From the NCBI GenBank assembly GCA_017882165.1, contig JADGPZ010000002.1, positions 14,142 through 78,141 of the forward strand: a stretch of 64,000 bases of DNA. The letters are read 5' to 3'. The stretch is from Candidatus Kapaibacterium sp. (GTDB taxonomy: Bacteria > Bacteroidota > Ignavibacteria > Palsa-1295). Below are positions 34,325 through 53,444 of the stretch, piece by piece (the first letter of the stretch is position 1; every line of letters begins with the position of its first letter). A program made the translations under genes and the position numbers. Below the pieces are notes generated by a model. That model was not told the origin of the DNA, made no database searches, and saw only the letters and a program-made list of their open reading frames with translations.

Positions 34325-34339
34325 CGATCCTTCACCCCA

Positions 34340-35467: not shown

Positions 35468-35483
35468 ACATTCTGGTCAACGA

Positions 35484-36907: not shown

Positions 36908-36917
36908 AATTTCCAAT

Positions 36918-37325
36918 ATGGATCCCGTTATCGGCATTCTAACATCGATTGTTATCCTCGCGATTATTTACCTCTGCGTATGGCTAATTCTGAGAATGCT
37001 CATTCGAAGAAGAATCATCAGCGTGCTAATTTCTTCCCTCATTGCACTAATCGTATTTGCAGTGCTCATTACATGGTCCTATTCAAAATGGTATGAACAC
37101 CATATTAAGAGCCTCTCATACGTTGATCCTATCGCTGCGAAGTTCTTTCATGAGCATCCGCTTCGAAGGGATAGCCTGCTCGGAATGACGAAACCGCAAG
37201 TGTTTACCACACTGGGCCTGCCGGAAGATACTGCCGGAGATCGAATCGTTTACACAATCGAACCATACTACCGGACGATTGTCCTATTTTTTAAGAATGG
37301 AACGGTAATCGAAGTTGAGAAATGA
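36918..37325 (+). CDS. Small membrane-anchored protein with BamE/SmpA-OmlA-like C-terminal domain, inserted between murD and ftsW
   Basis: Two N-terminal TM helices. C-terminal GMTKPQVFTTLGLPEDT...RIVYTIEP...VLFFKNGTVIEVEK resembles the BamE fold pattern. GC content is visibly lower than the flanks. Its stop overlaps the ftsW start. Confidence 0.45.
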   Translation: MDPVIGILTSIVILAIIYLCVWLILRMLIRRRIISVLISSLIALIVFAVLITWSYSKWYEHHIKSLSYVDPIAAKFFHEHPLRRDSLLGMTKPQVFTTLGLPEDTAGDRIVYTIEPYYRTIVLFFKNGTVIEVEK

Positions 37326-39606: not shown

Positions 39607-40124
39607 CCGAGGAATCAACACACGTCTATCGAGCACGCCTCGATTTCCTGTATCAGTCTATCGCGATGTACGCGGTGGCGCTGGTGCTATATCTCATTGT
39701 TCGGTCGTCCGTTGCATCCGAGGCGTTTCCTTCGCTATGGCAGGACCCACTGTTGTTCCTGCTCTCCGCAATCACGTTGATTTCCGTTTGTGCCTTGGCT
39801 TATAATCTATTTATGGGCCGCCAAATTGAGATCGCACGGGATGCAATCCGGTTTAAGAGCCGCGCGCGCCAGCGCTCTGTGGCGCGATCTGAGGTAGCCT
39901 TTCTGCAATTCGGACCGCGGTTTCGCCAGCCTCGCGGACGTATCCGTGTCGTACGCATTCGGTTGAAAGGCGAGCGGCGCCCAATCCGAATTCGTCTGGC
40001 GAACTTCGATCGCCGCAGACAGTTGCTTGCCGACTTGCGCCAGTGGGCGGGACCGCTGGGCAGAGAAGCGCGTCCGGCGTCAGGCGCGCCACGTAAGATA
40101 GCGCTCGGGAAGGAGTCTGGCTGA
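39603..40124 (+). CDS. Small 2-TM membrane protein with basic, possibly bacterial-PH-like, C-terminal domain, between murG and murC
   Basis: The ATG overlaps the murG stop (ATGA). Two TM helices (IAMYAVALVLYLIV, LLFLLSAITLISVCALAY) and an Arg-rich C-terminal ~90 aa. Part of the frame overlaps the murG 3' end, so the call is tentative. Confidence 0.35.
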   Translation: MTEESTHVYRARLDFLYQSIAMYAVALVLYLIVRSSVASEAFPSLWQDPLLFLLSAITLISVCALAYNLFMGRQIEIARDAIRFKSRARQRSVARSEVAFLQFGPRFRQPRGRIRVVRIRLKGERRPIRIRLANFDRRRQLLADLRQWAGPLGREARPASGAPRKIALGKESG

Positions 40125-40135
40125 GGCCAGCGACT

Positions 40136-41560
40136 ATGCGTCACGTTCATTTTATTGGCATCGGCGGAGCCGGTACGAGCGGGCTTGCGGAGATATTGCT
40201 GCTCCGGGGCATCGAAGTCTCCGGAAGCGATCTGGTTGCGAATGCAAAGACGGACGAACTCGCATTGCTTGGCGCGACCATCCATGAAGGACATGCCGGG
40301 CAGAATGTGAACGGGGCGGATATCGTCGTTTATTCTTCCGCCGTGCATCGCGACAATCCTGAATACGCGGAAGCCGTGCAGCGCGGTGTTCGAATCCTTC
40401 GCCGTGCGGACTTCATGGCCGAGCTACTGGCCGATCACAGTGTCATTGCCGTTGCTGGCACGCACGGAAAGACCACGGTGACCAGTATGATCGCCTCGAT
40501 CCTCATCGAGGCAAAGCTCGATCCGCTCGTGCTTGTTGGCGCCAGCGTTGCGGAACTGGATGGGAAGAATTCGCGCGCCGGGACCGGACGCATTGCCGTT
40601 GTTGAAGCGGACGAGTACGATCGCAGCTTCCTCGCGCTCCGGCCATTCATCGCCGTCATGACCTCTCTTGAAGAAGAGCACCTCGATATATACAAAGACT
40701 TGGACGATCTGAAAGACGCGTTCGTCGAGTTCGCGAACCAGGGTCCATCATCGCCGCAAACCGGATACGCGGTTGTTTGCATCGATGAGCCAGCCTTGCG
40801 CGCCATCACACCACGGCTTCAGAAGCGGATCGTGAGTTATGGCCTTCGGTCGATGGAAGCAAAGTATCGTGCGACGAACGTTTTGCTGAGTGCCCAACGG
40901 ATGCGTGCAACGATCATGCGAGGCAGCGATGCAGTTGGAGAGTTGGAATTACGCGTACCCGGGGAGCACAATATCTACAATGCGCTTGCCGCGCTGACCG
41001 TCGGAGAGATCTTATCGATTCCTTTCGAGACCTCGGTGCGGGCGCTGAAACGCTTTACGGGTGCCGAGCGGCGGTTTGAACGTATCGGCGAGGCTGCCGG
41101 TGTGGTTGTGATCGATGATTACGCGCATCATCCCACCGAAGTCCGAGAGACGCTCCTGACAGCCCGAAAATGCTATCCGGGCCGGCGCATCGTCGCGTGT
41201 TTCCAGCCGCACACATTTACGCGGACACGTGATTTTGCAACTGGTTTCGGCCAGGTATTTGCGGAACTTGCCGATGTGCTCGTGCTGCTGGACATATATC
41301 CGGCGCGCGAACAGCCGATTGAAGGTGTCACCAGTAAGCTGATCGCCGAGGCGGTGCTGGAGCTGAAGGAAATCCATGAGGTTGCAACCGTCGAAGAGTT
41401 GCCGGATCGGGTCGTCGCGATCGCGCAGGCCGGCGATGTCATCCTGACCATCGGCGCCGGGACGATTACGAACGCAGCCCGACCGATATTCGAACTCATG
41501 AAGGATAGGGAGCAAACTGGTGTTACCGTGCCGGCCTCAGAATTTGCCATCGCACAATGA
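40136..41560 (+). CDS. murC: UDP-N-acetylmuramate--L-alanine ligase
   Basis: N-terminal HFIGIGGAGTSGLAEIL, P-loop AVAGTHGKTTVTSM, and Mur ligase domains. Confidence 0.9.
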   Translation: MRHVHFIGIGGAGTSGLAEILLLRGIEVSGSDLVANAKTDELALLGATIHEGHAGQNVNGADIVVYSSAVHRDNPEYAEAVQRGVRILRRADFMAELLADHSVIAVAGTHGKTTVTSMIASILIEAKLDPLVLVGASVAELDGKNSRAGTGRIAVVEADEYDRSFLALRPFIAVMTSLEEEHLDIYKDLDDLKDAFVEFANQGPSSPQTGYAVVCIDEPALRAITPRLQKRIVSYGLRSMEAKYRATNVLLSAQRMRATIMRGSDAVGELELRVPGEHNIYNALAALTVGEILSIPFETSVRALKRFTGAERRFERIGEAAGVVVIDDYAHHPTEVRETLLTARKCYPGRRIVACFQPHTFTRTRDFATGFGQVFAELADVLVLLDIYPAREQPIEGVTSKLIAEAVLELKEIHEVATVEELPDRVVAIAQAGDVILTIGAGTITNAARPIFELMKDREQTGVTVPASEFAIAQ

Positions 41561-43026
41561 CCCAAGAAACTCCCATACACGAGATAGAAGAAACGCCATC
41601 CCCCTTGGAGATGGTGACCGATGAGAGTACCATCCCTTCGGATGGCGCTGCTTCGGATGTCGCTTCAGAAGAAACGGAAGCTCCACCCACCGATGGTGCG
41701 GTCGCTGCCAATGGCACGGCCCGCCGCGAATACCGCCCGCAAAGGGAGCGTGAGCCACGGGAGCGTGAGCCGCGCGCGCGAAAGGCACGCAAACCAGCCC
41801 CAGCAATCTTCGAGCGCTTTGTCGTCATCCGCTGGTCCGGACGCCGCGAGCCGGTCGATGATATGTTCTGGGCCGAGGCGACCAAGGAAGGCGAGTGGAT
41901 GGTCCTGACGGAGTTCGAGCAGATCCGTTCTCGCAAGGATATTTTGGCACGGCTACTGGAATTGCCGCCTGCGTTGGTCGCGCTTGATTTCCCGCTCAGC
42001 TATCCCGCTGACTTTTTCGAATTTTTGAAGGGCGAAGGGATCACCGACTGGAGATCGCTCGCAAAGCGAGTGCGGGAGGATCTCAAAAAGAACGTTGATG
42101 ACGGCGTGCGGCTTTGGATCGAACGGATGGGCGCCTATCGTGAGTCGCGGTTGGAAGACGAAGCACTCTGGCCCGATCGCCGGGACGACCGCTACAACGA
42201 CCGCCGAGGCGACCGGTATAACGATCGAGGGAATGACCGGTACAACGATCGCCGCTCGCCACTACCTCGTGAGCCTTTAGCACCCTACGAGCGCGGATCG
42301 CTCGCCGAGCGCTTTCGCCGCACGGACCATGCCCTGCGCCGCGTGGCCGACCGGCATCTTGTCAGTCCGGTTCAGATTGGTTACAACCGTCTGACCAATC
42401 GTTATGAGTTTACCGATGCGAACTCGCAGGGCCGCGCGGCGCTGCTTGGCATGTCGATGCTCGATCAAGTGCTCGATGTTCGTCAAGATGCGGCAGTCTG
42501 GCCGATGATGGCGCCGAAGCCGCTGACAATCGTTGAGGTGTTGCCATGGGTCTTCACCGCTGGTGACCGGTTGCAACCCGATGTGCTTCGGAAGCAAATG
42601 GCCACACTGGAAGATCGCGGCTGGGATATCCCGAGTCATGCGATCGACCAGGCCGCTCGAAATCCCGAGGCGCAAAGTGCCCTCCGGTGTTTGCTCGGCA
42701 TGATTAAGACCGAGAGCCGAGAGGATCGGCAACGGCGCCCGATCCGCGATTACTTGCCTGCATTCTATGATGATCCGCAGGTCAAACTCGAAGGGTGGTT
42801 CTATAGCGTTGGCTATCGGTCGATGACTGAAGAATCCAAATCGGAGCACCCACATAAGGAGGAAGCGAAAGACTCGCATCCGAAAGAGAAGCAAGAGACC
42901 AAGAAGAATATAGCGCTGCCAACGCCTCTGGAGAGTGTCCAGACCGAAAGTCCGGAAGCAGCAGTCCTTGCCGAAGTGACCGAACCCGCTGTTTCTGCGG
43001 AAGCCGAGCAAGAGCCAAGCCTTTAG
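41557..43026 (+). CDS. Hypothetical 489-aa protein inserted between murC and ftsQ: acidic/RE-rich termini, three DRYND repeats, possible RNase-H-like (DUF429-like) core
   Basis: The ATG overlaps the murC stop (ATGA). It contains a 21-nt tandem DNA repeat x3 (GACCGCTACAACGACCGCCGA...) encoding DRYNDRRGDRYNDRGNDRYNDRR. Core motifs VVIRWSGRRE, LVALDFPLSYP, RTDHALRRV...SPV and TIVEVLPWVF loosely resemble DUF429-type proteins. The fold assignment is speculative. Confidence 0.5.
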   Translation: MTQETPIHEIEETPSPLEMVTDESTIPSDGAASDVASEETEAPPTDGAVAANGTARREYRPQREREPREREPRARKARKPAPAIFERFVVIRWSGRREPVDDMFWAEATKEGEWMVLTEFEQIRSRKDILARLLELPPALVALDFPLSYPADFFEFLKGEGITDWRSLAKRVREDLKKNVDDGVRLWIERMGAYRESRLEDEALWPDRRDDRYNDRRGDRYNDRGNDRYNDRRSPLPREPLAPYERGSLAERFRRTDHALRRVADRHLVSPVQIGYNRLTNRYEFTDANSQGRAALLGMSMLDQVLDVRQDAAVWPMMAPKPLTIVEVLPWVFTAGDRLQPDVLRKQMATLEDRGWDIPSHAIDQAARNPEAQSALRCLLGMIKTESREDRQRRPIRDYLPAFYDDPQVKLEGWFYSVGYRSMTEESKSEHPHKEEAKDSHPKEKQETKKNIALPTPLESVQTESPEAAVLAEVTEPAVSAEAEQEPSL

Positions 43027-43175
43027 ACGAGAGCAGTGGAGCTTCCGCTGCCCGCAAGCCCTATTTGCATTGCCTCTCAACGAGGCAAGCCTTTAACTCA
43101 CGTATTTCATTTTTCAGCGAACGCTGTTTTCGTGCTGCGCGCAGGCAACTGTGCGTGTTTGCGAAAGTTTTTGCT

Positions 43176-44399
43176 ATGCGATTTACGATCAATCCGCCGA
43201 ATGGCGGCCGCAAAGAACTGACGAATCTTCGGGCGCGGGAGCCGGACGATCTCGTCCGGCAGCGACTGGGCGAGCGACAGAGCGAGCACCTTGGCGCGTC
43301 CGCACTGCGGACGGATGTAGAGGCATATCTCGATCGGGCGGCCGCGAGCGACGCTCCCGAAAGCGAGAGCATGCCGAGCGATACGTTCGAACAGTTCCTT
43401 GCGGAGGATACTCATGATTTATCTGGAACGAACGGTGACGAAGGGACTTCCTGGAGGCATTCTCGCTGGGCACCGGCGCTATTTCTTCTGGCAGTTGGTG
43501 CGCTAGCTTCACTGTGGTACTTCGCGGCGCATTTCGATCGCTCGCTCGCGCTTGAGAGCGTAAAAGTGGAAGGTGCCGATCTTGTGGCCGAGCGGGAGAT
43601 CGTCCGGCTTGCCGCAATCGACATGAAGCAAGCATTCTACTCGATCGACCTCCGGCGCATTGAGTCGAGGGTCGCGCAGCACTCTTTAGTCAAACATGTG
43701 CATGTTCGCCGAGAACTGAGTCCGGCAAGCATCGTCATCTCCATCGAAGAACGGCGGCCAGTGGCGATGCTAAAGTCAGATTCGTCGGGTGAGACTTATC
43801 TTATCGATCGGGATGGACACCTGCTTCGACCCAAGCTGCTTGCGGGTCTCAGCGATCCCGCGCGTTTGCTCGCGGTGCCACTCCTGAGCGGTGTGAGCGA
43901 GCGGGACACGGTCGGCTTCCAGGCGATGGCGCGACTCGTCGCGACGATCGGCGCGATTGACTCCGGGGCGTTGGGCAAAGCGATCGGCGAATTGCGCCGG
44001 ACGCCCAACGGATCATACGTCATCTATACTGCCGAGACACAGACGCCGATCTTCATCGGATCGCCGTTCGACGCACCATTTCAGACCGCGCTTGAAGAAG
44101 AGCGTGGCACAACCACGCGCGTGACAAACGATCACTTCTTCATGACACAGATCGCGCTGCTTGCCAAAGTCTGGAGATCCAAGCTTGAGAAGTCGCTCCG
44201 GGCCGGCGATGCGCTCTATGTCGATGCGCGGTTTCGAGGGCAGATCATCCTGAAGCGCCGCAACCAAGCCATGCTGCATGGTGCGCCGCCAGCATCTCAG
44301 AAATTTTCTGGACTCAATGGACTTGATGGACGATGTGGACCGTCCACCGCGTCCATGGTGTCCGTTCCGTCCATCGAGTCCATTCAGTCCACATCATAA
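43176..44399 (+). CDS. ftsQ: Cell division protein FtsQ/DivIB-like (POTRA domain)
   Basis: Position before ftsA. Single TM (WAPALFLLAVGALASLWYF) followed by a POTRA-like LESVKVEGADLVAEREIVRLAAID...IESRVAQHSLVKHVHVRRELSPASIVISIEERRP. Start chosen at ATG 43176. The cytoplasmic tail is unusually long. Confidence 0.6.
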   Translation: MRFTINPPNGGRKELTNLRAREPDDLVRQRLGERQSEHLGASALRTDVEAYLDRAAASDAPESESMPSDTFEQFLAEDTHDLSGTNGDEGTSWRHSRWAPALFLLAVGALASLWYFAAHFDRSLALESVKVEGADLVAEREIVRLAAIDMKQAFYSIDLRRIESRVAQHSLVKHVHVRRELSPASIVISIEERRPVAMLKSDSSGETYLIDRDGHLLRPKLLAGLSDPARLLAVPLLSGVSERDTVGFQAMARLVATIGAIDSGALGKAIGELRRTPNGSYVIYTAETQTPIFIGSPFDAPFQTALEEERGTTTRVTNDHFFMTQIALLAKVWRSKLEKSLRAGDALYVDARFRGQIILKRRNQAMLHGAPPASQKFSGLNGLDGRCGPSTASMVSVPSIESIQSTS

Positions 44400-44405
44400 C
44401 TTGTT

Positions 44406-45848
44406 ATGCAACGAACGCGAATGAGCGATCCCCGGATGAGCGATCGTCCGACCTATTCAGAACCAGCGTATAGCACGAGCAGCTATTCGAGTGGGGCCCC
44501 GATGGGTGGCTCACCCATGGGTGGCTCTCCCATGATGGGCGTCCCAGCGCAACACGAGCCGGCGAAGATCATCGTCGGGCTTGATGTGGGCACGACGAAG
44601 GTCTGTGCGATCGTCGCGGCGATCTCGCTGCGCGAGCCGCACACGATGACCGTGCTCGGCGTGGGGCATGCCCCGGCCGATGGACTTTCGCGCGGCGTCG
44701 TGACGAACATCGAGAAGACGGTGCGCTCGATCGAGCGCGCCATTGCGGAGGCCGAGGCTCAGAGCGGTGTGAAGATCCGCGAGGTCGTTGTTGGCATTGC
44801 GGGCGATCACATTCAGTCGTTCCAGTCGCGCGGCGTTGTCACGATCTCGAATGCCGAGCGGACGATCTCGCAGGATGATGTCGATCGGCTGATCGAGGAT
44901 ACGAAGAAGGTGCATCTGCCCATGGACCGCCGAATTTTGCACGTAATCCCGCAAGAGTTTATCGTCGATGGACAGGACGGGATTTACGAACCGATCGGTA
45001 TGTCCGGCGTGCGGCTGGAGGCGAGCGTCCACATCATCAACGGCCTCGTCACCGCCGTGCAAAACATCTACAACTGTGTGGAGCGCGCTGGACTCCGCGT
45101 CCGCGATATCGTTCTTGAACCGCTCGCGTCGAGCTATGCCGTGCTTGACGATGAGGAAAAGGAGGTTGGCGTGGCGCTCGTCGATATTGGCGGTGGCACC
45201 ACGGACATTGCGGTATTCGAAGAACGGACCATCCGCCACACGGCTGTTGTCGGTATTGCCGGACAAAAAGTCACGGATGATATTCGCAAGGGACTCGGCA
45301 TTCTCGGCGATCAGGCCGAACGTCTCAAACGTGAGTATGGCTGCGCCGTTGTCTCGCACATCCTGCGTGACGAAGTGATCCAATTGCCAGGACTCGCCGG
45401 CCGCAAGCCTCGTGAAATTCAGAAGTCCGTAATCGCGCGCGTGATTCAGCCGCGAATGGAGGAGATTCTCGAATTCGCGCTCTCCGAGATCAAACGATCC
45501 GGGTACGCGCGGCATCTCTCGGCGGGTGTCGTGCTCACGGGCGGTGGCTCGATGACGAATGGCACGCGCGAACTGGCCGAAGAAGTCTTCCAGATGCCGG
45601 TCAAGATCGGAATGCCGATGGGCTTCGGCGCGGGACTCGTCAAAGAGGTCGAGTCGCCGGTCTTCTCGACAGCGGTCGGACTCGTGCTCTATGCCTTCCG
45701 GCATCACGAGAAGAGCGACCTTATGTCATACGTGGAGACGTTGGCTGCGGAAGAACCCGTTGTCGTTAGCGAAGAGACGCATCTGGAAGATGACGAGCAA
45801 AAGGGCTCGATCTTCTCGAAGATGAAAGAATGGTTTGAACAACTCTAA
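44406..45848 (+). CDS. ftsA: Cell division protein FtsA (actin-like ATPase) with ~50-aa low-complexity N-terminal extension
   Basis: IIVGLDVGTTKVCAIV phosphate-1 motif, DIGGGTTDIAVF phosphate-2, and the overall FtsA pattern. The extension carries a 15-nt tandem repeat encoding PMGGSPMGGSPMMG. Confidence 0.85.
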   Translation: MQRTRMSDPRMSDRPTYSEPAYSTSSYSSGAPMGGSPMGGSPMMGVPAQHEPAKIIVGLDVGTTKVCAIVAAISLREPHTMTVLGVGHAPADGLSRGVVTNIEKTVRSIERAIAEAEAQSGVKIREVVVGIAGDHIQSFQSRGVVTISNAERTISQDDVDRLIEDTKKVHLPMDRRILHVIPQEFIVDGQDGIYEPIGMSGVRLEASVHIINGLVTAVQNIYNCVERAGLRVRDIVLEPLASSYAVLDDEEKEVGVALVDIGGGTTDIAVFEERTIRHTAVVGIAGQKVTDDIRKGLGILGDQAERLKREYGCAVVSHILRDEVIQLPGLAGRKPREIQKSVIARVIQPRMEEILEFALSEIKRSGYARHLSAGVVLTGGGSMTNGTRELAEEVFQMPVKIGMPMGFGAGLVKEVESPVFSTAVGLVLYAFRHHEKSDLMSYVETLAAEEPVVVSEETHLEDDEQKGSIFSKMKEWFEQL

Positions 45849-45943
45849 CAGTGCTGAGTGCTCAGTGTTGAGTGCTAAGTATGGCATTCGGCAGAGACAC
45901 TCAGCGTCCTTTGAAACACAGCACTCAGCACTTAGCACTTAGA
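45849..45943. repeat. Palindromic repeat element (AGTGCTGAGTGCT ... AGCACTCAGCACTTAGCACT) filling the ftsA-ftsZ intergenic space
   Basis: Left arm cagtgctgagtgctcagtgttgagtgctaagt and right arm acacagcactcagcacttagcacttag. A 12-bp perfect core stem GTGCTGAGTGCT/AGCACTCAGCAC. It ends 4 nt before the ftsZ ATG. Confidence 0.55.
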
Positions 45944-45946
45944 ACT

Positions 45947-47431
45947 ATGATAGAACTCGATACCAAACAAGAATACGGCGCGAAAATCCGGGTGGTCGGC
46001 GTGGGCGGCGGTGGCTCCAATGCTGTCAACGCAATGATCAACAAAGGCCTGGAGGGCGTGGAATTCTGCGTGCTCAACACCGACATGCAGGCGCTCGAAA
46101 AGAGCACGGCCTCGATCAAGCTGCAAATCGGCAAGAACCTGACGCGGGGACTTGGCGCTGGCGCCGATCCGGAAGTCGGGCGCAAAGCCGTCGAAGAAGA
46201 CCGCGAAGAGATCATGCACATGATGGCGGGGAGCGATATGATCTTTGTCACGGCCGGCATGGGTGGCGGCACCGGCACGGGTGGCGTCCCCGTCGTGGCG
46301 TCGATTGCGAAGTCGATTGGCGCGCTCGTAGTCGGAATCGTCACGAAGCCGTTCGCCTTCGAAGGCAAGCGCCGATCGCGGCAGGCTGAAGATGGCATCG
46401 AGGAGCTTCGCCGCAATGTCGATACGCTCATCGTGATCCCTAACCAGAAGTTGCTCGGGTTGGTCGAGAATTCAACCTCGTTTCTCGATGGCTTCTCGCT
46501 CGCAAATCAGGTGCTTTACAATGCCACGCGGGGCATCAGCGAACTGATTATTCGTCACGGATACATCAACGTTGATTTCGCTGACGTGCGGACCGTCATG
46601 CGCGAGATGGGCGATGCCATCATGGGCTCGGGTGTTGGCCGTGGCGAGCACCGCGCCTCCGTCGCGGCGGAGCACGCGATCTCCTCGCCGCTGCTCGAAG
46701 GGGTATCCATTCAGGGCGCGCAAGGAGTGCTCGTCAACATCACTGGTGGGCGCTCAATGTCGCTGATCGAAGTGAGCGAGGCGACGCAGATCATCCACGA
46801 CGCGGCCGGCGACGATGCGAATATCATCTTCGGTGCCGTGCTCGATGAGACGATGGAAGAAGAGATCATGGTGACGGTGATCGCGACCGGATTTAACTCG
46901 CGGCCAAAGTACAATGGCCTGAGCGTGGGCGGCGGCGGCGAGCTGCGTCCAACCCGTGTGACGGAACGAGTAGAGGAAGAAGTACCGCGCCTGCGAACGC
47001 AGCGCATCAATCAGGCATCGACCGAAGAGGTCGTTGCGACCTCGCGGCCGCCATTGCGAGAGACGGCGATGGCCGACACACAGGCGATGCCGCTGCCGCG
47101 CGTCGAACGGATGTTTGTACCGCGTGGCACGCTCCGTGAAAAAGAACGCGGGACTTCATTCGAGACGAACGAGGTAGAAACGCCGGAGCGTCCGCTAACG
47201 ACCGGAGTCTCGCGGCTGACGCCGCGTACCGATACGCGGCACGTTCCATCAGGTCCACGCGATTTGAAGGACTACGACCAACCAGCGTATCTGCGACGTG
47301 GCGTGCAGCTTCCGCCCATCGGCGAAGCAGAGGAACCGCAGGCCGTCGCGCAAGAAGCGGCAAAGGTGGAAGAACCGCGTAGCCGCGACCACGATGACAA
47401 GCCAGCGTTCCTGAAGCGGATTATGGATTAA
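45947..47431 (+). CDS. ftsZ: Cell division GTPase FtsZ
   Basis: GVGGGGSNAVN tubulin signature, T7 loop NVDFADV, long disordered C-terminal linker, and conserved C-terminal peptide (DKPAFLKR). Confidence 0.9.
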   Translation: MIELDTKQEYGAKIRVVGVGGGGSNAVNAMINKGLEGVEFCVLNTDMQALEKSTASIKLQIGKNLTRGLGAGADPEVGRKAVEEDREEIMHMMAGSDMIFVTAGMGGGTGTGGVPVVASIAKSIGALVVGIVTKPFAFEGKRRSRQAEDGIEELRRNVDTLIVIPNQKLLGLVENSTSFLDGFSLANQVLYNATRGISELIIRHGYINVDFADVRTVMREMGDAIMGSGVGRGEHRASVAAEHAISSPLLEGVSIQGAQGVLVNITGGRSMSLIEVSEATQIIHDAAGDDANIIFGAVLDETMEEEIMVTVIATGFNSRPKYNGLSVGGGGELRPTRVTERVEEEVPRLRTQRINQASTEEVVATSRPPLRETAMADTQAMPLPRVERMFVPRGTLREKERGTSFETNEVETPERPLTTGVSRLTPRTDTRHVPSGPRDLKDYDQPAYLRRGVQLPPIGEAEEPQAVAQEAAKVEEPRSRDHDDKPAFLKRIMD

Positions 47432-48991
47432 GTGTCACGGTTGGATCCGAGACGCGAGAGCAGTCTCTCACCCTTGAAGAGTAGTCTACTTCCAATCGGC
47501 GTTGCCATTGGGAGTAGTCTGCTCACGCTCATCCCGCCCTCGATCATCGGGACCGATTCGAGCGCGCTCACCCTGCAAAGCCTCGAGCATTGGATGCACG
47601 GGACACCAGACCGCTTCGAGGCGCTGCGCATTCACTGGCTGTGGATACCTCGCGTGATCGCATATCTGACGGGCGATGCGTTTGCCGCGCTCGTGATCTT
47701 CCGAGCGATCATATTCGGCCTCACGATCTATCTCTTCGCGAAAGTTGGCGAGCGGTTCGGGCGTGGAGACCGCGCCACAACAATCCTTGCGGCTGCGATG
47801 CTCGCGCTGAACGTGGTCGTTCTCTACTTCTCGCACACATTCGCCTCGCAATTGCTGACGTTGTTCGTTGCGGTCTGGATGCTCTATCTTTTGACGAGTG
47901 ACAAGACGCAGAATCATCGGCTCGCCGCGCTGATTTTCGGACTGAGTCTGTCGATTGGTTTTTGGCCGTTTGTGCTTCTGCTTGCTGTCGTGACGGTAGG
48001 ACTGAATTTTCATCACGCGACGTATACTCCTCGCTTGCGACAAACCTATCAGCTATTTGGTCTCGTGCTGCTCGGAGCCGCCTCCTATATTTTGTTGGAA
48101 ATATTCCTCTTCGGCACAGCGCATGTTTGGGAAATGATGATGCCAAAAGTCTACCAGCCACGCGAGATCAGCCTCATCGCACAGGGGCTCATCATTGGGC
48201 TCTTCTCGGTCAACATGCTGGTCATAGCTGTATTCGTTCGCAGGCAAGACAGCATCGCTCGCGATTTCCAATCGGCATTTGTTATTCTCGTCGCATTTCT
48301 TTTGCTGAATACCTTTTCGCGCGAGGATATGCTGCACGATGTGATGGTACTGATCCCTTGTGTGATCCTCGTTGGAGTGGACAAATGTGGACTTAGTAGA
48401 CGGCGTGGACTTATCGGAGCAGCATATTTGGGGGTGAACCTCGGACTGTTCTTCTTGCTTCCGACTTTTTTGCCGGACCCGCAAATCGCCATGCCGAGTG
48501 CGAAGCGCACGGTAAGCTCAAGCGATGTCTCGCTGCACCACTATGCCAGCGCAGATTTCTTTAGCTATGCGAAGCTGCGAGAGCAGGCGGCAGGAGAGGA
48601 AGAAGTCAGAGCCGTTCTTGAAACAGCTCGACTGGATTCGACGCTTGTGTTAATTACTCCTGGCACCGATTATTGGTTCGATGCCGCAACGCTCGGCGCA
48701 ATGTATCCGAGTGCGAAGTTCGGCTGGTTCTATGGTAATCCGATTAATATGGTTCGGATCAATGGGCTGCTCGATACGGCGTTTATTCGCCCTCCATCCG
48801 GTACGCCATATCTCGCCGGGTTGTTTGAGAAGTCGTATGCGATGCGATTCATCGATAGCTCACTTCCATCAGGTGTGCCCATACGGGAATCTGCGCGATT
48901 TCAATACATCGACACACGAGGCAACACGGATGCGCGAAAGGCGCTGATCGATCGGCTGATCTTCTTACAATATCAGGGCTTTCGACATTGA
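47432..48991 (+). CDS. Polytopic integral membrane protein (GT-C-like / unknown) directly abutting ftsZ; GTG start
   Basis: The GTG is 1 nt after the ftsZ stop. Roughly 11 predicted TM helices with a C-terminal soluble ~180-aa domain. No catalytic motif is recognised. Confidence 0.4.
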   Translation: MSRLDPRRESSLSPLKSSLLPIGVAIGSSLLTLIPPSIIGTDSSALTLQSLEHWMHGTPDRFEALRIHWLWIPRVIAYLTGDAFAALVIFRAIIFGLTIYLFAKVGERFGRGDRATTILAAAMLALNVVVLYFSHTFASQLLTLFVAVWMLYLLTSDKTQNHRLAALIFGLSLSIGFWPFVLLLAVVTVGLNFHHATYTPRLRQTYQLFGLVLLGAASYILLEIFLFGTAHVWEMMMPKVYQPREISLIAQGLIIGLFSVNMLVIAVFVRRQDSIARDFQSAFVILVAFLLLNTFSREDMLHDVMVLIPCVILVGVDKCGLSRRRGLIGAAYLGVNLGLFFLLPTFLPDPQIAMPSAKRTVSSSDVSLHHYASADFFSYAKLREQAAGEEEVRAVLETARLDSTLVLITPGTDYWFDAATLGAMYPSAKFGWFYGNPINMVRINGLLDTAFIRPPSGTPYLAGLFEKSYAMRFIDSSLPSGVPIRESARFQYIDTRGNTDARKALIDRLIFLQYQGFRH

Positions 48992-48997
48992 AGGGGA

Positions 48998-49016
48998 GGA
49001 CGTGCGCGGCACGTCC
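48998..49016. terminator. Bidirectional terminator hairpin GGACGTGC-gcg-GCACGTCC between convergent genes
   Basis: 8-bp perfect GC-rich stem in the 31-bp gap between the stops at 48991 (+) and 49023 (-). Confidence 0.5.
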
Positions 49017-49022
49017 CTACGA

Positions 49023-50465
49023 TTACCCCAAGAAGTGGACCTTCACCATGTTCGTGTGGCTGACCTGAAAAGTCGGGTGACCACCGGTCAGCACGACCCA
49101 TCCTGAACCGTCGATGAGTTCCTTGGCTTGCGCATCTCGGACCATGCGTTCGAGCGTCTCGTCGAAGGTCTTAACCTCTTCGAGCTTGAGCGGAATGACA
49201 CCGTGATAGAATGCCATGCGGCGCAATACGGTGTCATCGGTGGACATGCCGATCACCATCTTCGAGAACCGGTACTTGGCAACAGATCGCGCGCTACGTC
49301 CCGAGAGCGTGGCGCAAATGATTGCCTGAGCGTGTACCTCCTCTGCGAGGACACACGCGGCGCGGGCGACGGAATCGGTTGCATACTCGACTTCGTCCTG
49401 TGGGAGCACGAATTCGCGGTCAACTCGCACATACCCGCTCCGCTCGGCGGCTAAGATGATTTCTCGCATCGTTGCGACCGACTCGACCGGATAGGCTCCC
49501 GCGCCCGTTTCGGCTGAAAGCATGACGCAGTCCGAGCCATCGAATACGGCGTTTGCCACATCGCTCGCCTCGGCGCGGGTGGGACGCGAGTGGACGATCA
49601 TGGATTCCAACATCTGCGTCGCCGTGATCACGGGAATTCCACGCGCATTGGCGAGATCGACCAAGCGCTTCTGTATCGGCGGCACGCGTTCGAGCGGCAT
49701 TTCGACACCGAGATCGCCGCGCGCGACCATAATCATATCCGTCTCGTTGAGAATATCCTTGATGTTCTCGACGGCCTCCGGTTTCTCGATTTTGGCGATC
49801 AGCGGTGTCCAAGTGTCGTTGAACTCTGTCTTCAGGAATTGCCGCAGTTCCCTGATGTCTTCGGCTTTTCGGACAAAGCTGAGTGCCAGCGCATCCACGC
49901 CGATCTTCTGAATGGCAAAACGAACGATCTCCTTGTCATGGTCCGTGAACGTCGGGATGCGGAGTACGGTCGCGGGAAAGTTAATTCCCTTGTGGCTTTT
50001 GAGGGTCCCGCCGGTCTTGACCGTGCAGACGATCTCGGTCGCGGAGATTACGGACTTCACCACCAGTTCGATCGCGCCATCATCGAGCAGGACCGAATGG
50101 CCGGTCTTGATATCAACCCCCAGATATTGATAGGACGTCGTGATCCGCTCGGTGGTCGTGGGGACTTCGGGATCATACGCGAGCCGGACATCGGTGCCGA
50201 CCATAAGCAAGACGCCATTTGGATCGGCTACATCTCCGGTGCGCATTTTGGGACCAGGCAGATCGGCAAGGATCGCAATATGCCGGCCGAGCCGCTGGCT
50301 CACGGCGCGGACCTTCGTGGCGATGTCGAGGTGGGTTTCGAACGTGCCGTGAGAGAAGTTCAGCCGGGCGATGTCCATTCCGGCCAGCACCAGCTTTTCG
50401 ATGATCTCTTCGGTCGCGCTCGAAGGACCTAACGTCGCGACAATTTTCGTCTTGGCCTGAAGCAT
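49023..50465 (-). CDS. pyk: Pyruvate kinase
   Basis: KIVATLGPSS N-terminus and conserved MVARGDLGVE and ATQMLESM motifs. Length is 480 aa. Confidence 0.9.
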   Translation of the reverse strand: MLQAKTKIVATLGPSSATEEIIEKLVLAGMDIARLNFSHGTFETHLDIATKVRAVSQRLGRHIAILADLPGPKMRTGDVADPNGVLLMVGTDVRLAYDPEVPTTTERITTSYQYLGVDIKTGHSVLLDDGAIELVVKSVISATEIVCTVKTGGTLKSHKGINFPATVLRIPTFTDHDKEIVRFAIQKIGVDALALSFVRKAEDIRELRQFLKTEFNDTWTPLIAKIEKPEAVENIKDILNETDMIMVARGDLGVEMPLERVPPIQKRLVDLANARGIPVITATQMLESMIVHSRPTRAEASDVANAVFDGSDCVMLSAETGAGAYPVESVATMREIILAAERSGYVRVDREFVLPQDEVEYATDSVARAACVLAEEVHAQAIICATLSGRSARSVAKYRFSKMVIGMSTDDTVLRRMAFYHGVIPLKLEEVKTFDETLERMVRDAQAKELIDGSGWVVLTGGHPTFQVSHTNMVKVHFLG

Positions 50466-50468
50466 GAG

Positions 50469-50545
50469 GAAGTGCTAAAGTGCTGAAGTGCTAAGATGCT
50501 CGTCTCGCGCTGAACTCAGCACACGAGCACTTTAGCACTTCGGCA
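50469..50545. repeat. Palindromic repeat element, same family as 45849-45943 (GAAGTGCTAAAGTGCT ... AGCACTTTAGCACTTC), between tRNA-Val and pyk
   Basis: 16-bp perfect inverted repeat with a ~40-nt loop. It begins 4 nt upstream of the pyk start codon on the minus strand. Confidence 0.55.
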
Positions 50546-50555
50546 CCTATAAAAG

Positions 50556-50629
50556 TGGGCAATACGGGATTCGAACCTGTGACCTCTTCCATGTCAAGGA
50601 AGCGCGCTAACCAACTGCGCCAATTGCCC
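50556..50629 (-). tRNA. tRNA-Val (anticodon GAC)
   Basis: Cloverleaf folded by hand: acceptor GGGCAAT/ATTGCCC, D-arm GCGC-AGTTGGTTA-GCGC, anticodon arm CTTCC-TTGACAT-GGAAG, T-loop TTCGAAT. There is one A.C mismatch in the T-stem. CCA is not encoded. Confidence 0.8.
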
Positions 50630-50718
50630 ATCGGTTGAAGTAAGGAACGCCTAACCGGAAACGAGTCCGGGGCCGTTCCCAAAGCATGGCACGCCGCGGC
50701 GGGCGGGCGGATACTTCC

Positions 50719-51024
50719 TCAAGAGAACCGGCGGAGTGTCATGACGGCTTGCCGTGCCTCGGCGAAATCAGTCGCGATACGGCTGATCAGCCGACTCGTT
50801 TCGTCGTCCAGGCTGTCTTCGAGCGCATCATAGGCGGGCGTCGAGTCGCATTCGTAGAGTTCGACGAATGTTCCTGGCGTATCTTCCGACTGGTAAACCG
50901 AAAAGCGGACGGCCTGCTGAGTGCTATTGATGCGGTTCTCAAGGTCCCGAATGATGCCCTCGAATTCCCTTCGCTTGGCCCCGGGCACCGAATACGTGAT
51001 AGTGACGAGTGTGTTCGCTGCCAT
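50719..51024 (-). CDS. Small ABM-domain-like protein (antibiotic-biosynthesis-monooxygenase / stress-responsive alpha-beta-barrel fold)
   Basis: VTITYSVPGAKRREFEGIIRDLE...AVRFSVYQSEDTPGTFVELYECDSTPAYDAL follows the ABM pattern (beta-alpha-beta, ...F...E.W.S..A...H-like). The start is assigned to MAANTLV. Confidence 0.4.
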   Translation of the reverse strand: MAANTLVTITYSVPGAKRREFEGIIRDLENRINSTQQAVRFSVYQSEDTPGTFVELYECDSTPAYDALEDSLDDETSRLISRIATDFAEARQAVMTLRRFS

Positions 51025-51137
51025 TCTTCCGATGTTATCGCTATTAGTGAGATTGCAATTCTGAACTGCAAAGTTACGGCACTTTGGAGAGCTTTCCAAG
51101 AAATCGGGCTGAATTTCCTCTATTTTCGTAGTACCTT

Positions 51138-53444
51138 ATGCAAACACCACTCTTTTCCCGGCTTTGGCCGAATGCTGTTCTTATAGGCGCGGTCTCGATC
51201 ATCGAGATTGCCTTTTCCAGTCCGCTCTTTGCCACGTTGGGGTTTGAGTACTCCGCGCTCATGGCCTTGTCGCTCAGTTTCGTGTGCGGGATGGAAGCCA
51301 GCTTGAACAAGCTCGCGTGGCGCAGCAGGCTTGGCCGCGTGCTTACACTTTGGTCGATTCCGCTGTTGGTCTCGCTCCTCTCACTCCTGTGGCTTCGGAA
51401 CTGCGCACTGTGGGATGGGATCATACTATACTTTGAGATTGCACTTCCGAGCGCGCTCCTTGGTGGCGCGTTCGGCGCGGCCTTCTCGATGTTCTTCCGC
51501 TCACGTCGGACAAGCTTCCTGGTGTTCGTGGCATTCTGGATTGTTACTCTCGTCCTTTCACTACTGCCCGGTTACACGAATCCCCAGCTTTTCACCTATG
51601 GCTGGCAGTATGGCTTCTTTCCCGGCCTCGTCTGGGATGAAGCGCTCGAGTTATCGAACGCCTATCTGCTATTCCGCGCCGAGAACCTCGTCTGGGCGGC
51701 GTTCGTGATCTCGATTCCGATTGCGATCGGATCGACAGGCTCGCTTCTCAAACGTGTCGGCATCCCCACCGCGCTTGCCGTTGCTGCATTCTGGATACTG
51801 TCTCAAAATGACCTCTTCCAAATTACTTCGTCGCACGCTCGCGTCGAGCATTCGCTTAGCCATGTGTCGCGACCCGCCCAAGGTTGCGTGGTCCACTACG
51901 ATTCCGCATCATTGACCGCGGAGGAGATCGAGCAGGTCAATGCCGATATTCGCTGGTATCTCTACGACGTTCGCCAACGGTTTTTGCTGCGCGATACGAG
52001 CAGTCCGATCAACATCTACATCTATCCTTCGACGGAGACACTCAACGAGTTGGTCGGCACGCGCGCTGCCTCGATTGCGAAACCCTGGCTCGGCGAGCTT
52101 CATATCGCGAAGGGCAATCTGCATTCTCTGAAGCACGAGTTGACGCATATCTTGCTGCGGGAGAAGGCTGCGTGGCCGTTCTATGCGAGCTGGTCTACCG
52201 GACTTACGGAAGGTGCCGCGATGTCTGTCGAGCCAGAGTTCGATGGGATATATTCGCTCGATGAGCACGCAGCTCGGATTCTGCAATTGCATTACGCTTC
52301 CGGAGTAAAGCCGGTGATGGCATTCACCGGGTTCGCTGCGAATGCTTCGACGAAGAGTTACGTGCTGGCGGGATCGTTCTCGCGATATTTGTTGAACACC
52401 TATGGCCCGGAACACTTCGATCGAGTGTATGTGACACTGAATTTCGAAAAGGAATACGGGAAGCCGATTGATTCGCTCGACGCCGAATGGAAGCGGTGGC
52501 TGGCACCACTCATGACGCCACTGGAAGCGGACGATTCCGAGCACTTTCGATATTACTATGACCGCGCTTCGATCATTTTTAACCCCTGCCTCCGCCGCAT
52601 CGGAAAACTGGAGCGCAAAGCGCAGGAGGCATTCGGTCGCAAAGGGTACTCGGATGCGGAGCGATTGTATCGCGACGCTGTCACCGCAGGTGGCGGGATT
52701 GGGCCACTCGTCGGCGAGTCCTACGCGATCCTGATGCAGGATAAAGATGAGCGCGCACTCGAACTTCTGGATACGTCACGGTCCCCCGAACTCCAAAAAC
52801 AACGCGCCGCGCTCTATCTCGAAAAGGCTGATCTCGGAGTGCTGACCCATGGGCAATCAGCGCAAGCGAATTATGCAAGCGCCGAGCGGGTGAAGATTAG
52901 CAGTGGACAGTTCATTCTCGCCTATGTTCGTAGCGTTCTCGACACCTCCGATGTCGCGTCGATCTTCCACACGTATCTCCACCATCTTTATCATCGTCGC
53001 ACGCTTGACGACTCGATCCGCCGCGTCCTGATCGATTCCATGGCTTCAATGCACCATCGAACCGAGCACTTCGACAGAGTGGCGCTTTCGATTCGCTTTC
53101 TCCAAACTTCGATGCTCCAGCAAATGGGAATGCTCACGAAGGCGGCAGAACTCGATCCGTTTGGGAATGTGGAGGAGGAAGCCAACGGCCACTCAGACAT
53201 CGACTTATTTCTTAAGACAGAATCTCTGACTGCGACGGATTCGCTTGCGATCTCCGCTGTCTATCTTCACTTTGCCACCTTGCCGGAGGGAGATCGGCGT
53301 GTCCTCGGCGAACTGCTTCAGGCGGAGGTGTATTGTCCCCAAAAGTACGCACGGACAGTTCGAGACATTTCTGATGAAATAGATCGGCAATGGCATTTCA
53401 GGCATGGGATTCCGCCGACACCCTACCGTGGAACGTCTCCGTGA
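51138..53444 (+). CDS. Large membrane protein: N-terminal polytopic domain + soluble region with HExxH zincin-like motif + C-terminal helical repeats
   Basis: About 8 TM helices in the first 230 aa. HELTHILLRE...E suggests a zinc metallopeptidase (MA-clan-like) domain. The C-terminus has a TPR-like helical character. Confidence 0.45.
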   Translation: MQTPLFSRLWPNAVLIGAVSIIEIAFSSPLFATLGFEYSALMALSLSFVCGMEASLNKLAWRSRLGRVLTLWSIPLLVSLLSLLWLRNCALWDGIILYFEIALPSALLGGAFGAAFSMFFRSRRTSFLVFVAFWIVTLVLSLLPGYTNPQLFTYGWQYGFFPGLVWDEALELSNAYLLFRAENLVWAAFVISIPIAIGSTGSLLKRVGIPTALAVAAFWILSQNDLFQITSSHARVEHSLSHVSRPAQGCVVHYDSASLTAEEIEQVNADIRWYLYDVRQRFLLRDTSSPINIYIYPSTETLNELVGTRAASIAKPWLGELHIAKGNLHSLKHELTHILLREKAAWPFYASWSTGLTEGAAMSVEPEFDGIYSLDEHAARILQLHYASGVKPVMAFTGFAANASTKSYVLAGSFSRYLLNTYGPEHFDRVYVTLNFEKEYGKPIDSLDAEWKRWLAPLMTPLEADDSEHFRYYYDRASIIFNPCLRRIGKLERKAQEAFGRKGYSDAERLYRDAVTAGGGIGPLVGESYAILMQDKDERALELLDTSRSPELQKQRAALYLEKADLGVLTHGQSAQANYASAERVKISSGQFILAYVRSVLDTSDVASIFHTYLHHLYHRRTLDDSIRRVLIDSMASMHHRTEHFDRVALSIRFLQTSMLQQMGMLTKAAELDPFGNVEEEANGHSDIDLFLKTESLTATDSLAISAVYLHFATLPEGDRRVLGELLQAEVYCPQKYARTVRDISDEIDRQWHFRHGIPPTPYRGTSP

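Follow-up and report, generated by a model that had tools for sequence, protein, structure and literature searches.

Predicted hairpins of tandem heptanucleotide repeats in the intergenic spacers of a Kapabacteria-like lineage

Intergenic heptamer repeats have, to our knowledge, been known since about 1990, from cyanobacteria, Xanthomonas, Beggiatoaceae and some Bacteroidetes, and we know of no agreed origin or function for them. The cyanobacterial STRR repeats, which Mazel et al. reportedly described in 1990, are said to be heptanucleotide repeats. In the case of extragenic palindromes, a REP close to a stop codon is said to down-regulate translation, a finding attributed to Liang, Rudd and Deutscher in 2015. 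The documented roles of REPs include mRNA stabilisation (PMC3733652, PMC3116915). In Xanthomonas, inverted pairs of GGGAATC heptamer arrays are located mostly between aligned ORFs and are transcribed (Rehm et al. 2015, PMC4692102). Direct TAACTGA repeats that precede start codons have been reported from Beggiatoaceae, Cyanobacteria and five Bacteroidetes (MacGregor 2015, PMC4679880) and, as far as Mrazek et al. 2007 is quoted in that same paper, heptamers form the most abundant class among 5-11-nt repeats. In the 5'-UTR of the H. influenzae hmw1A and hmw2A genes, (ATCTTTC)n supplies one of the two arms of a long hairpin (Rapun-Araiz et al. 2025, PMC12721329); there, RNase III cleavage raises expression, and a change in repeat number needs both transcription and the hairpin (PMC12721329). 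Among structures of this kind, hmw is the only one whose mechanism has been dissected by experiment. The class of element described below is already published, and its setting here is a little-studied Kapabacteria-like lineage. A first-pass annotation of the DNA had considered such families to be undescribed in the clade, which holds insofar as our literature search found no paper on Kapabacteria repeats or on the AGTGCT word, but does not hold for the class itself (PMC4692102, PMC4679880).

In the window, by which we mean the whole 64-kb stretch of DNA that was analysed, the spacer between ftsA and ftsZ is occupied by a predicted hairpin (45849-45946; dG -42.9 kcal/mol, z = -5.6) flanked by the ftsA stop codon (45846-45848) and the ftsZ ATG (45947). 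Its 5' arm (45850-45880) begins 2 nt past the ftsA stop and is composed of about 4.4 tandem AGTGCTN units, reading AGTGCTG AGTGCTC AGTGTTG AGTGCTA AGT, and its 3' arm (45920-45946) is composed of about 3.9 NAGCACT units, reading CAGCACT CAGCACT TAGCACT TAGAACT, and ends 1 nt before the ftsZ ATG. The central region that would form the loop (45881-45919) is without periodicity and contains a GACACTCAGCG stretch that is conserved in L002, one of the fetched loci, which are given here by their L numbers. At the seventh (N) position of the units the arms are not complementary, so that any correction of one arm by the other would be occasional at best. Allowing at most one mismatch, AGTGCTNAGTGCT has 7 matches in the 64-kb window for 0.09 expected, a count that was reached in 0 shuffles, and exact AGTGCTNAG has 8 matches in the window for 1.23 expected, all 8 of them located in spacers between ORFs. 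Within the window, the earlier description of dispersed palindromic repeats at gene junctions is borne out, the repeats being intergenic and well above chance level.

The second of these structures is an inverted repeat with an AGTGCT hexamer core, located between pyk (ATG at 50465, minus strand) and the tRNA-Val gene (50555-50629, minus strand). It spans 50469-50546 (dG -46.7, z = -7.0) and its period is 8 nt in both arms, the pyk-side arm (50470-50500) being built of AAGTGCTN units and the complementary arm (50515-50546), 9 nt from tRNA-Val, of AGCAC-type units. In the yebC leader, 9 nt upstream of the yebC ATG (60141, minus strand), there is a degenerate NNAGTGN x5 array (60150-60187) that reads GAAGTGT GGAGTGC TAAGTGC GAAGCGT GGAGTTG and is C-rich on the yebC sense strand; its complementary arm is absent and its fold z values are -1.6 and 0.0. 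Long inverted repeats had been annotated at all three sites, more weakly at the third, and we retain them at 45849-45946 and 50469-50546 (fold z -5.6 and -7.0), while 60150-60187 is a single array. The statement that the sites abut the start codons of ftsZ, pyk and yebC was correct in every case. The tandem-heptamer nature of the arms had been overlooked.

At least four further spacers of the window, equally overlooked, have the same architecture with other words. Between mraY and murD, (AGGGTRT)x4 is followed by (ATACCCT-like)x6 in a hairpin at 35483-35556 (dG -47.1, z -8.1), the 3' array of which overlaps the murD ATG (35555). Between a Wzz-like gene and the next ORF, an AATKAGG / CCTMATT hairpin (63353-63440, dG -38.6/-41.3) overlaps the upstream stop codon (63356-63358) with its 5' array, and its 3' array stops 5 nt short of the ATG at 63446. 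The arrays of the yebC-amidohydrolase spacer (59318-59404, genes on the minus strand), (GAAGGAT)x4.3 and (ATTCGTM)x4.4, pair on the plus strand only, via G.U (dG -33.3, vs -6.3 for the sense strand); the yebC stop (59386-59388) is within the right array and the downstream ATG is at 59312. A hairpin is also present at 8087-8157, between the convergent genes at 6375-8081 (plus strand) and 8168-9277 (minus strand), with arms formed by GTGTAGT GTGGAGT TCTACTC and the complement (dG -40.3, z -6.4), and the period-7 autocorrelation of that spacer is 0.41. Finally, a single array at 6237-6267 (AAAGATG AAAGATG AAGTATG AAATATG) lies next to the tmRNA gene (5705-6228, minus strand), 9 nt away from its 5' end, and has only a weak complementary partner at about 6278-6295.

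Arrays with a period of seven nucleotides are specifically over-represented: the window has 7 period-7 runs vs 0.15 in shuffles and 0-3 runs for the other periods among 4-12, and the Kapabacteria-like loci have 13 per 247 kb, vs 0-6 for other periods. TRF and a period scan gave copy numbers of 4.4 and 3.9 for the arrays starting at 45850 and 45920, 4.0 and 6.3 for those at 35483 and 35513, 4.3 and 4.4 for those at 59318 and 59374, and 4.1 and 4.4 for those at 63353 and 63410. Five spacers of 86-111 nt are made up almost wholly of one hairpin each, with period-7 autocorrelations of 0.41-0.62 compared with about 0.25 elsewhere, and the inverted array pairs of the window have dG values of -33 to -47 kcal/mol and folding z of -4 to -8. 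All arrays in the window are intergenic, between Pfam-confirmed or long ORFs, and at least six heptamer words occur within this single 64-kb stretch (AGTGCTN, AGGGTRT, AATKAGG, GAAGGAT, AATKACG, AAAGATG and GTGKAGT). A search of the whole window against Rfam 15 at the gathering threshold returned tRNA-Val and tmRNA only, and no family at the hairpins. Each element is an array of 3-6 tandem 7-nt units, a short loop and an array of complementary units, which together fill a short intergenic spacer, and we identify these elements with high confidence as heptanucleotide simple-sequence-repeat hairpins of the LSSR/STRR type. The word AGTGCT(A/G)AG, which had been taken to define the family, cannot be kept in that role, since at least five other heptamers in this genome share the architecture and the word differs between relatives at one and the same junction. 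AGTGCTN arrays occur across many phyla and on viral contigs, with at least 120 matches in species genomes for about 17 expected by chance. We nevertheless rejected AGTGCTN as a special cross-phylum family, because composition-matched control words are similarly common (57 AGTGCTN stretches on viral contigs vs 38, 47 and 19 for three such words).

When the orthologous junctions of relatives are compared, the word at ftsA-ftsZ is AGTGCTN in the window, L002 and L128-L130, and GAGTAAC/GCGTAAC in L189 (FtsZ 94% identical), L001 and L125, and at tRNA-Val-pyk the window and L001 have AGTGCT where L002 has AATTAGG. In these replacements the hairpin is kept and both arms are altered together, and the 7-to-8 period shift of 50469-50546 is present in both arms. 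Some words recur at unrelated loci (AATTAGG at 63353 in the window and at 15706 in L002; AATTACG at 59374 in the window and in L127). Conservation of the hairpin does not extend to the wider clade: the ftsA-ftsZ junctions of L126, L127, L131 and L132 have no hairpin and that of L004 has a remnant only, hence the hairpin is dispensable. The part of it that persists most widely is the C/A-rich 3' array, which is present in L128 and L130 and as a remnant in L004, L133 and L134, and in L128 and L130 the C-rich array beside the ftsZ ATG persists unpaired; together with the non-pairing sense strand at 59318-59404, this indicates that the hairpin may not be the selected feature. In regards to length, the difference between the window and L002 is 8+1 nt, with no clean 7-nt step, and L001 and L189 are of equal length and differ by substitutions only, so that slippage has no direct evidence in these relatives. 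We found no strain-level copy-number polymorphism, as L002 and L003 are identical, and there were no exact matches to the FtsZ, PK and MraY of the window. The unequal arms seen in other phyla, for example 10 vs 3.5 units in L045, would fit with slippage.

In the fetched loci as a whole, inverted pairs were located at 28 co-directional, 10 convergent and 1 divergent junctions, relative to a background of 494, 141 and 149 such spacers, a background drawn from loci of many taxa with crude ORF calls, and the median gap between a pair and its flanking ORFs was 6-8 nt. Of the 84 pairs, 78 have a G+T-rich 5' arm. This polarity recurred in independent loci that carry control words (10:1 for a G-rich 5' arm) and does not vary with junction type (10:2 at convergent vs 25:7 at co-directional junctions); Rho avoidance, which predicts more reversed hairpins at convergent junctions, was for that reason discarded as its cause. 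Single arrays are G-rich near a stop or C-rich near a start in 26+25 cases, vs 9+8 contrary ones, but a sense-strand rule drawn from them was rejected, given that it is strand-symmetric and equals the hairpin polarity, and thus brings no evidence for a transcript-level cause. We were also not convinced that the purpose of the 5'-arm words is to supply stop codons in three frames (stop-containing words 16/18 vs 12.7 expected from composition, P = 0.05; stop-containing word families 7/8 vs 5.8 expected, P = 0.28). Among 41 co-directional hairpins we found no signature of sense-RNA selection, neither in stability (sense vs antisense 19:20) nor in G.U pairs (131:149), and the complementarity of the arms was therefore probably made at the DNA level and not through selection on the mRNA. 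AGTGCT can be read directly as wobble-self-complementary, and with DNA parameters the 5'-arm words self-fold only slightly better than their complements (-1.57 vs -1.15 kcal/mol), which lends a snap-back model of hairpin origin suggestive but not strong support. In L030, perfect arms run on into unique sequence close to the loop. The keto skew of array words in general is only mild.

A scenario that could account for such hairpins starts with replication slippage, which would lengthen and shorten the arrays, and the inverted partner would arise at the DNA level when one arm is copied into the other, by snap-back or template switching. The G+T-rich strand, self-pairing by G.T wobble, would become the parental 5' arm and so give the observed polarity. 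Arm-to-arm copying would hold both arms to one word and one period over time, and turnover of the words would result in different words at orthologous junctions. One could go further and assume that the hairpins are produced by an undescribed directional process that imposes the keto-rich 5' arm, a polarity that is nearly universal over many phyla and viral contigs, and that they were co-opted as intercistronic devices in the SD-less Kapabacteria. In that process, a nascent array that is G+T-rich and pairs with itself by wobble could be copied by snap-back, or repeats could be remodelled in dependence on transcription or RNase III, as hinted at by H. influenzae; ftsZ, murD and pyk would then be translated only after the stem has been opened by a terminating ribosome or cleaved. 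We consider this extended version improbable.

The location of the hairpins inside operons (mraY-murD, ftsA-ftsZ, tRNA-Val-pyk) suggests that they are transcribed and folded as RNA, in which case they would form stems of 25-37 bp. The Shine-Dalgarno (SD) signal is absent in the Kapabacteria-like clade (12% upstream vs 11% in the internal control; 35% vs 14% in Ignavibacteria-like loci), and the distance from the 3' arm to the ATG is 0-6 nt in 8/8 cases read. The most likely effect would be that of a long intercistronic RNA stem sequestering the leader of an SD-less start codon, with hmw of H. influenzae as a precedent for RNase III. The base of the stem would bring the upstream stop codon beside the downstream start codon, and the stem itself would hide the 15-30 nt, C/A-rich leader of that start. 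It may also be a substrate for RNase III-like, double-strand-specific processing and a barrier to exonucleases, and translation of the downstream gene could require that the stem be cleaved, or that it be opened by a ribosome terminating at the abutting stop. A post-transcriptional role like that of REPs, which had been put forward from the start, is a reasonable functional analogy. The chances that the hairpins measurably affect expression seem to us about even, and it is rather doubtful that such an effect is the reason why they are kept. Taken together, we lean slightly towards simple-sequence-repeat hairpins whose arrays change length by slippage, whose arms are copied at the DNA level and which act post-transcriptionally as the best explanation overall.

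The same hairpins could also be functionally inert, a mutational by-product that expands in non-coding spacer until it reaches coding sequence and is tolerated there. The loss or degeneration of the hairpin at the same junction in many relatives would fit this, as would the free turnover of words, the uncompensated substitutions in the arms with mismatches at every 7th position, the missing sense-strand wobble signature, and control words about as common as AGTGCTN (19-47 vs 57 stretches); the filling of spacers up to a few nt from the ORFs is also expected of neutral expansion. However, a -40 kcal/mol stem 0-6 nt from the SD-less start of ftsZ, murD or pyk could hardly be translation-neutral, and the depletion at divergent (promoter) junctions, with 1/39 pairs, implies that the hairpins are not tolerated everywhere. 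Moreover, the hairpin outlasts the replacement of its word at the same junction, and a hairpin that controls expression has an experimental precedent (PMC12721329). We regard inertness as unlikely, though deserving serious consideration.

The remaining alternatives appear much weaker. If the arrays were periodic sites for a protein that recognises the sequence or composition of RNA or DNA, such as S1, Csp or a CsrA-like protein at the C/A-rich leader or else a DNA-binding regulator, and the hairpin secondary, the partnerless C-rich array by the ftsZ ATG in L128 and L130, its remnants in L004, L133 and L134, and the arrays near starts at 59318-59404 and 60150-60187, which have no sense-strand fold, would find an explanation. 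Binding of S1, Csp or CsrA has been proposed for TAACTGA arrays at SD-poor starts (PMC4679880), and Nostoc heptamer repeats near start codons alter reporter expression (bioRxiv 10.1101/2022.06.06.494920). Even so, a sequence-specific binder would not tolerate many unrelated words in one genome and a swap of the word at one junction, arrays are also found in convergent spacers, which lack a start codon, and no candidate protein was identified, which makes this very unlikely. REP/REPIN-like or MITE-like elements moved by a transposase, for example a RAYT, would account for dispersed extragenic palindromes at gene 3' ends, for the same words at unrelated loci and in relatives, and for the simultaneous replacement of both arms at one site. 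But copies share only a 6-7-nt word, with unrelated loops and flanks, and others use different words; no terminal inverted repeats around a core, target-site duplications or flanking direct duplications were seen; GTAG/CTAC or CGTC/GACG are missing from the stem bases of 45849-45946 and 50469-50546, and GTAG occurs only within words at 35483 and 8087. The 7-nt periodicity and the unequal unit numbers between arms are not REP or MITE traits either, and control-word arrays are equally common, so that mobility is highly improbable. The REP/BIME membership suggested in the first-pass annotation fails accordingly, there being no shared 20-40 nt palindrome and no GTAG/CGTC tag, and the arms being internally periodic. 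As for transcription terminators or attenuators, stable stems do occur downstream of stop codons, 8087-8157 lies between convergent genes and a TTTT follows 63353-63440; yet 0/21 terminator-like sites (stem plus T-run) in 34000-52000 overlap the hairpins, their count being that expected from shuffles, the stems are far longer than those of typical terminators, and several immediately precede ftsZ and murD within essential operons, in which termination would be harmful. We give this reading the least credence of all. No promoter consensus was found at the hairpins in 34000-52000.

The hairpins place this type of repeat in a new lineage, in a host without Shine-Dalgarno use, where structure upstream of a gene should dominate translation initiation, and they directly precede the essential, dosage-sensitive genes ftsZ, murD and pyk. 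The ftsA-ftsZ junction would therefore be a clean test case for gating of translation or mRNA processing. Models of origin are constrained by the keto-rich 5' arm (78/84), the avoidance of divergent junctions, the joint change of word in both arms and the lack of a sense-strand wobble bias; we found no joint statement of the polarity, junction, arm-coupling and wobble regularities in the papers that we consulted. The presence of these repeats will break short-read assemblies, and they can be confused with REP elements, MITEs or regulatory RNAs.

With regard to the known systems, the likeness to the REP, BIME and REPIN sequences of Enterobacteria and Pseudomonas (PMC3733652, PMC3116915) lies in their being extragenic palindromes at gene 3' ends or between cistrons. 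REPs differ in having one conserved 20-40-nt sequence with a GTAG/CGTC tag that is mobilised by RAYT, whereas the elements described here have no conserved sequence, an internal 7-periodicity and many words. Head-to-tail 7-nt units, several words per genome, an extragenic location and a sporadic phylogenetic distribution are shared with LSSR/STRR repeats; these were however described as direct arrays, and the inverted-pair hairpin, the polarity and the tight fit between stop and start fall outside their definition. The GGGAATC repeats of Xanthomonas are similar in many respects, being convergent tandem heptamer arrays with stem-loop potential that show an excess between aligned ORFs and a deficit between divergent ones, are no more than about 50 nt away from stop and start codons, have the G-rich array on the 5' side, and usually keep the repeat type at orthologous loci while varying in length. 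In Xanthomonas, however, essentially a single G-tract word is used, which has the potential to form G-quadruplexes, and four units are preferred, in contrast to the many words in one genome, the replacement of the word at orthologous junctions and the SD-less host seen here; a GGG tract is absent in AGTGCTN, AATKAGG, GAAGGAT and GAGTAAC, and GGG x4 is present only at 35483-35510 (AGGGTRT x4). As in the TAACTGA repeats, arrays lie a few nt upstream of starts in spacers without canonical ribosome-binding sites, one word is found in distant phyla and a translational role has been proposed, but the TAACTGA repeats are nearly all direct (169 direct sets and 1 indirect in BOGUAY) with one dominant word, and those of the window are mostly inverted pairs of varied words. 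Finally, if transcribed, our predicted hairpins would resemble the hmw leaders, in which a heptamer simple-sequence repeat provides one side of a long imperfect RNA hairpin ahead of a start codon. In hmw only one arm is such a repeat, the other being G-rich and unique, and the polarity is opposite, with a pyrimidine-rich 5' arm; the hmw repeats, at least 11 in number, belong to a phase-variable virulence gene, whereas the hairpins reported here are found at the junctions of housekeeping operons.

Upstream of ftsZ, at 45849-45946 (site 1), the units AGTGCTG, AGTGCTC, AGTGTTG, AGTGCTA and a final AGT are followed after 39 nt by CAGCACT, CAGCACT, TAGCACT and TAGAACT, so the palindrome of the first-pass annotation in fact consists of a tandem-heptamer array and its inverted counterpart. 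The element runs from 2 nt past the ftsA stop to 1 nt short of the ftsZ ATG (45947), with a predicted fold of -42.9 kcal/mol (z = -5.6). Site 2 (50469-50546), flanked by two minus-strand features, tRNA-Val and the pyk ATG, is a hairpin with the same AGTGCT core but a period of 8 nt in either arm (predicted dG -46.7 kcal/mol, z = -7.0). Site 3 (60150-60187), 9 nt away from the yebC ATG, is one degenerate array for which sequence reading and folding gave neither a complementary arm nor a significant fold. Within the window, AGTGCTNAGTGCT with at most one mismatch has 7 matches versus 0.09 expected, and AGTGCTNAG has 8 versus 1.23. The observation of three long inverted repeats beside start codons is real, statistically solid and for the most part correct, the exception being site 3, which has no inverted arm.

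The proposed family definition, AGTGCT(A/G)AG, did not hold, since scans of the whole window for tandem and inverted repeats found the same architecture with different words. An AGGGTRT/ATACCCT hairpin lies between mraY and murD (35483-35556), its 3′ array overlapping the murD ATG, and an AATKAGG/CCTMATT hairpin extends from a Wzz-like gene to the next ORF (63353-63440); GTGKAGT occurs between convergent genes (8087-8157), arrays of GAAGGAT and ATTCGTM between yebC and an amidohydrolase gene (59318-59404), and a single AAAGATG array (6237-6267) adjoins the tmRNA gene. Seven is the sole over-represented period (7 runs versus 0.15 in shuffles), and the five hairpin spacers, 86-111 nt long, hold almost nothing but the hairpin, with a period-7 autocorrelation of 0.41-0.62 versus about 0.25 elsewhere. 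The window hairpins coincide with no Rfam family and with no consensus for a terminator or a promoter. The elements are heptanucleotide simple-sequence-repeat hairpins, a kind already described, and this identity is secure; cyanobacterial STRR repeats are a further described case of such heptanucleotide repeats. REP/BIME, REPIN, MITE and terminator were each rejected because a defining feature is absent, so the REP/BIME-like label was partly right in spirit but wrong as a classification. At 59318-59404 the arrays differ consistently at two positions per unit (GAAGGAT versus complement GACGAAT), so each was homogenised within itself once the arms had diverged; yebC, with its stop codon, extends into the right-hand array.

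Other features were seen in the window. The minus-strand tmRNA gene (5705-6228) is full-length by Rfam (90.3 bits, model positions 1-374 of 374) and was not reported by ARAGORN; the 3′ part of this gene is overlapped by a longest-ORF call (3873-5864), whose true start therefore probably lies further downstream. A second dispersed motif, GGATGAGCGATCATCC (6-bp stem, GCGA loop), is unrelated to the heptamer arrays and has 7 matches versus 0.15 expected, including three in tandem between ftsI and murE (31035-31085), one within the tmRNA gene (6094-6109) and one, with 1 mismatch, within ftsA (44434-44449); the 16-mer also lies in the loop of the ftsA-ftsZ hairpin of comparison locus L134. Two GC-rich composite palindromes are not of the heptamer class, namely CCCCCGCCTTTTCAAGGCGGGGG paired with CCCCCGCCTTGAAAAGTCGGGGG at 10291-10379, inside a crude 1045-aa ORF call (9461-12598) that may therefore be two genes, and GGCGAATTGGAATTCGCC at 22940-23012.

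The FtsZ proteins nearest to that of the window carry the labels Candidatus Kapabacteria or Bacteroidota. Among the fetched loci, the ftsA-ftsZ junction has AGTGCT/AGCACT arrays in L002 (FtsZ 85% identical) and L128-L130 (72-74%), with the array beside the ATG kept but unpaired in L128 and L130, and a GAGTAAC/GCGTAAC hairpin in L189 (94%), L001 (91%) and L125. L004, L133 and L134 retain no more than a remnant of the 3′ array beside the ATG, no hairpin or array was found in the spacers of L126, L127, L131 and L132, and in Ignavibacteria-like loci the spacer is plain and contains an AAGGAGG Shine-Dalgarno (SD) sequence. At tRNA-Val-pyk the word is AGTGCT in the window and L001, and AATTAGG, the word found at window 63353, in L002. 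The hairpin thus tends to persist at its junction, and both arms swap word together, from a small vocabulary common to the clade. L001 and L189 differ by uncompensated substitutions only, and the window and L002 differ in length by 8+1 nt rather than 7, so neither comparison shows a slippage step directly. Upstream of ftsZ, L133 (~1535-1615) and L134 (~7680-7760) also carry a long GC-rich palindrome, GTAGTGGCGCGG...CCGCGCCACTAC, with the GTAG start and CTAC end that tag the GTAG-type REP superfamily and a short AGCACT remnant between it and the ATG. In L145, which is more distantly related and does use SD sequences, the ftsA-ftsZ spacer (~4920-5040) is filled by 14 or more CAACCGA-type heptamers in direct array, with no inverted partner, immediately 5′ of an AAGGAGG SD.

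At least 120 stretches of species-representative genomes contain three tandem copies of AGTGCTN, versus about 17 expected by chance (our own arithmetic), the matches listed coming from Nostocales, Acidobacteriota, Chloroflexota, Gemmatimonadota, Chlorobiaceae, Planctomycetota, Verrucomicrobiota and others, and frequently folding into nearly perfect hairpins (about -70 kcal/mol). In viral contigs there are 57 such stretches, against 38, 47 and 19 for three control words of matched composition, which rules out AGTGCTN as a single spreading family and makes it one of many words in a general heptamer-array phenomenon. The viral-classified contig IMGVR_UViG_3300005578_000008 (40.8 kb) is saturated with dozens of arrays within ~38 kb, of related words (AGTGCTG, AGTCCTG, AGGACTG, GGACTCA, GGAACTC) with a constant CTNAG core and two variable bases.

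Across all fetched loci, which span many taxa, have crude ORF calls and were picked for containing arrays, inverted pairs lie at 28 co-directional, 10 convergent and 1 divergent junctions (background spacers 494/141/149), at a median of 6-8 nt from the flanking ORFs. The strict AGTGCT pattern shows array-then-complement order 26 times and the opposite order 0 times, and of 84 de novo pairs 78 have a G+T-rich 5′ arm (69:5 for search-seed-like words, 9:1 for others). This polarity recurs in control-word loci and is independent of junction type (25:7, 10:2, 3:1); as a hairpin is identical read from either strand, it is uninformative on the strand used. A single-array rule, G-rich after stop and C-rich before start, was discarded as separate evidence because it restates hairpin symmetry.

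The arrays may have arisen by slippage with occasional copying of arm into arm at the DNA level, and a keto-rich 5′ arm would be the expected outcome of snap-back synthesis off a G/T-rich strand. AGTGCT can pair with itself by means of two G.T wobbles, which its complement is unable to form; the energetic support for such an origin of the polarity is, however, weak. As to effect, a predicted long intercistronic RNA stem could bury the C/A-rich sequence leading into the next gene's start codon; in all cases read, 0-6 nt separate the ATG from the end of the 3′ arm. The Kapabacteria-like clade shows no SD usage (12% upstream of start codons versus 11% in the internal control, in the window and L001, L002, L004 and L125-L134), whereas Ignavibacteria-like loci of the same FtsZ search reach 35% versus 14%. 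As an alternative or addition to RNase III cleavage, the stem base could be opened by translational coupling, through the ribosome that terminates at the adjoining stop codon. That the hairpins are a purely neutral by-product remains a serious rival to a regulatory stem, since many relatives lack the hairpin, L128 and L130 keep the ATG-adjacent array unpaired, and the arrays at 59318-59404 fail to pair on the sense strand (-6.3 vs -33.3 kcal/mol). Sense and antisense are equal in fold stability (19:20) and G.U content (131:149), with no sign in these comparisons of selection on the mRNA maintaining pairing.

The interest of these elements lies in an SD-less host with hairpins before ftsZ, murD and pyk, in word turnover at fixed junctions and in the keto-5′ polarity. 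Among the long simple-sequence repeats of Mrazek, as summarised in PMC4679880, 7-mers are the commonest class, and TAACTGA arrays lie immediately 5′ of SD-poor start codons (PMC4679880). The inverted pairs of GGGAATC arrays of Xanthomonas (PMC4692102) have the same junction preference as the hairpins here. The best experimental precedent for the proposed stem effect is the H. influenzae hmw leader, where a heptamer repeat arm forms a long hairpin whose cleavage by RNase III raises expression (PMC12721329).
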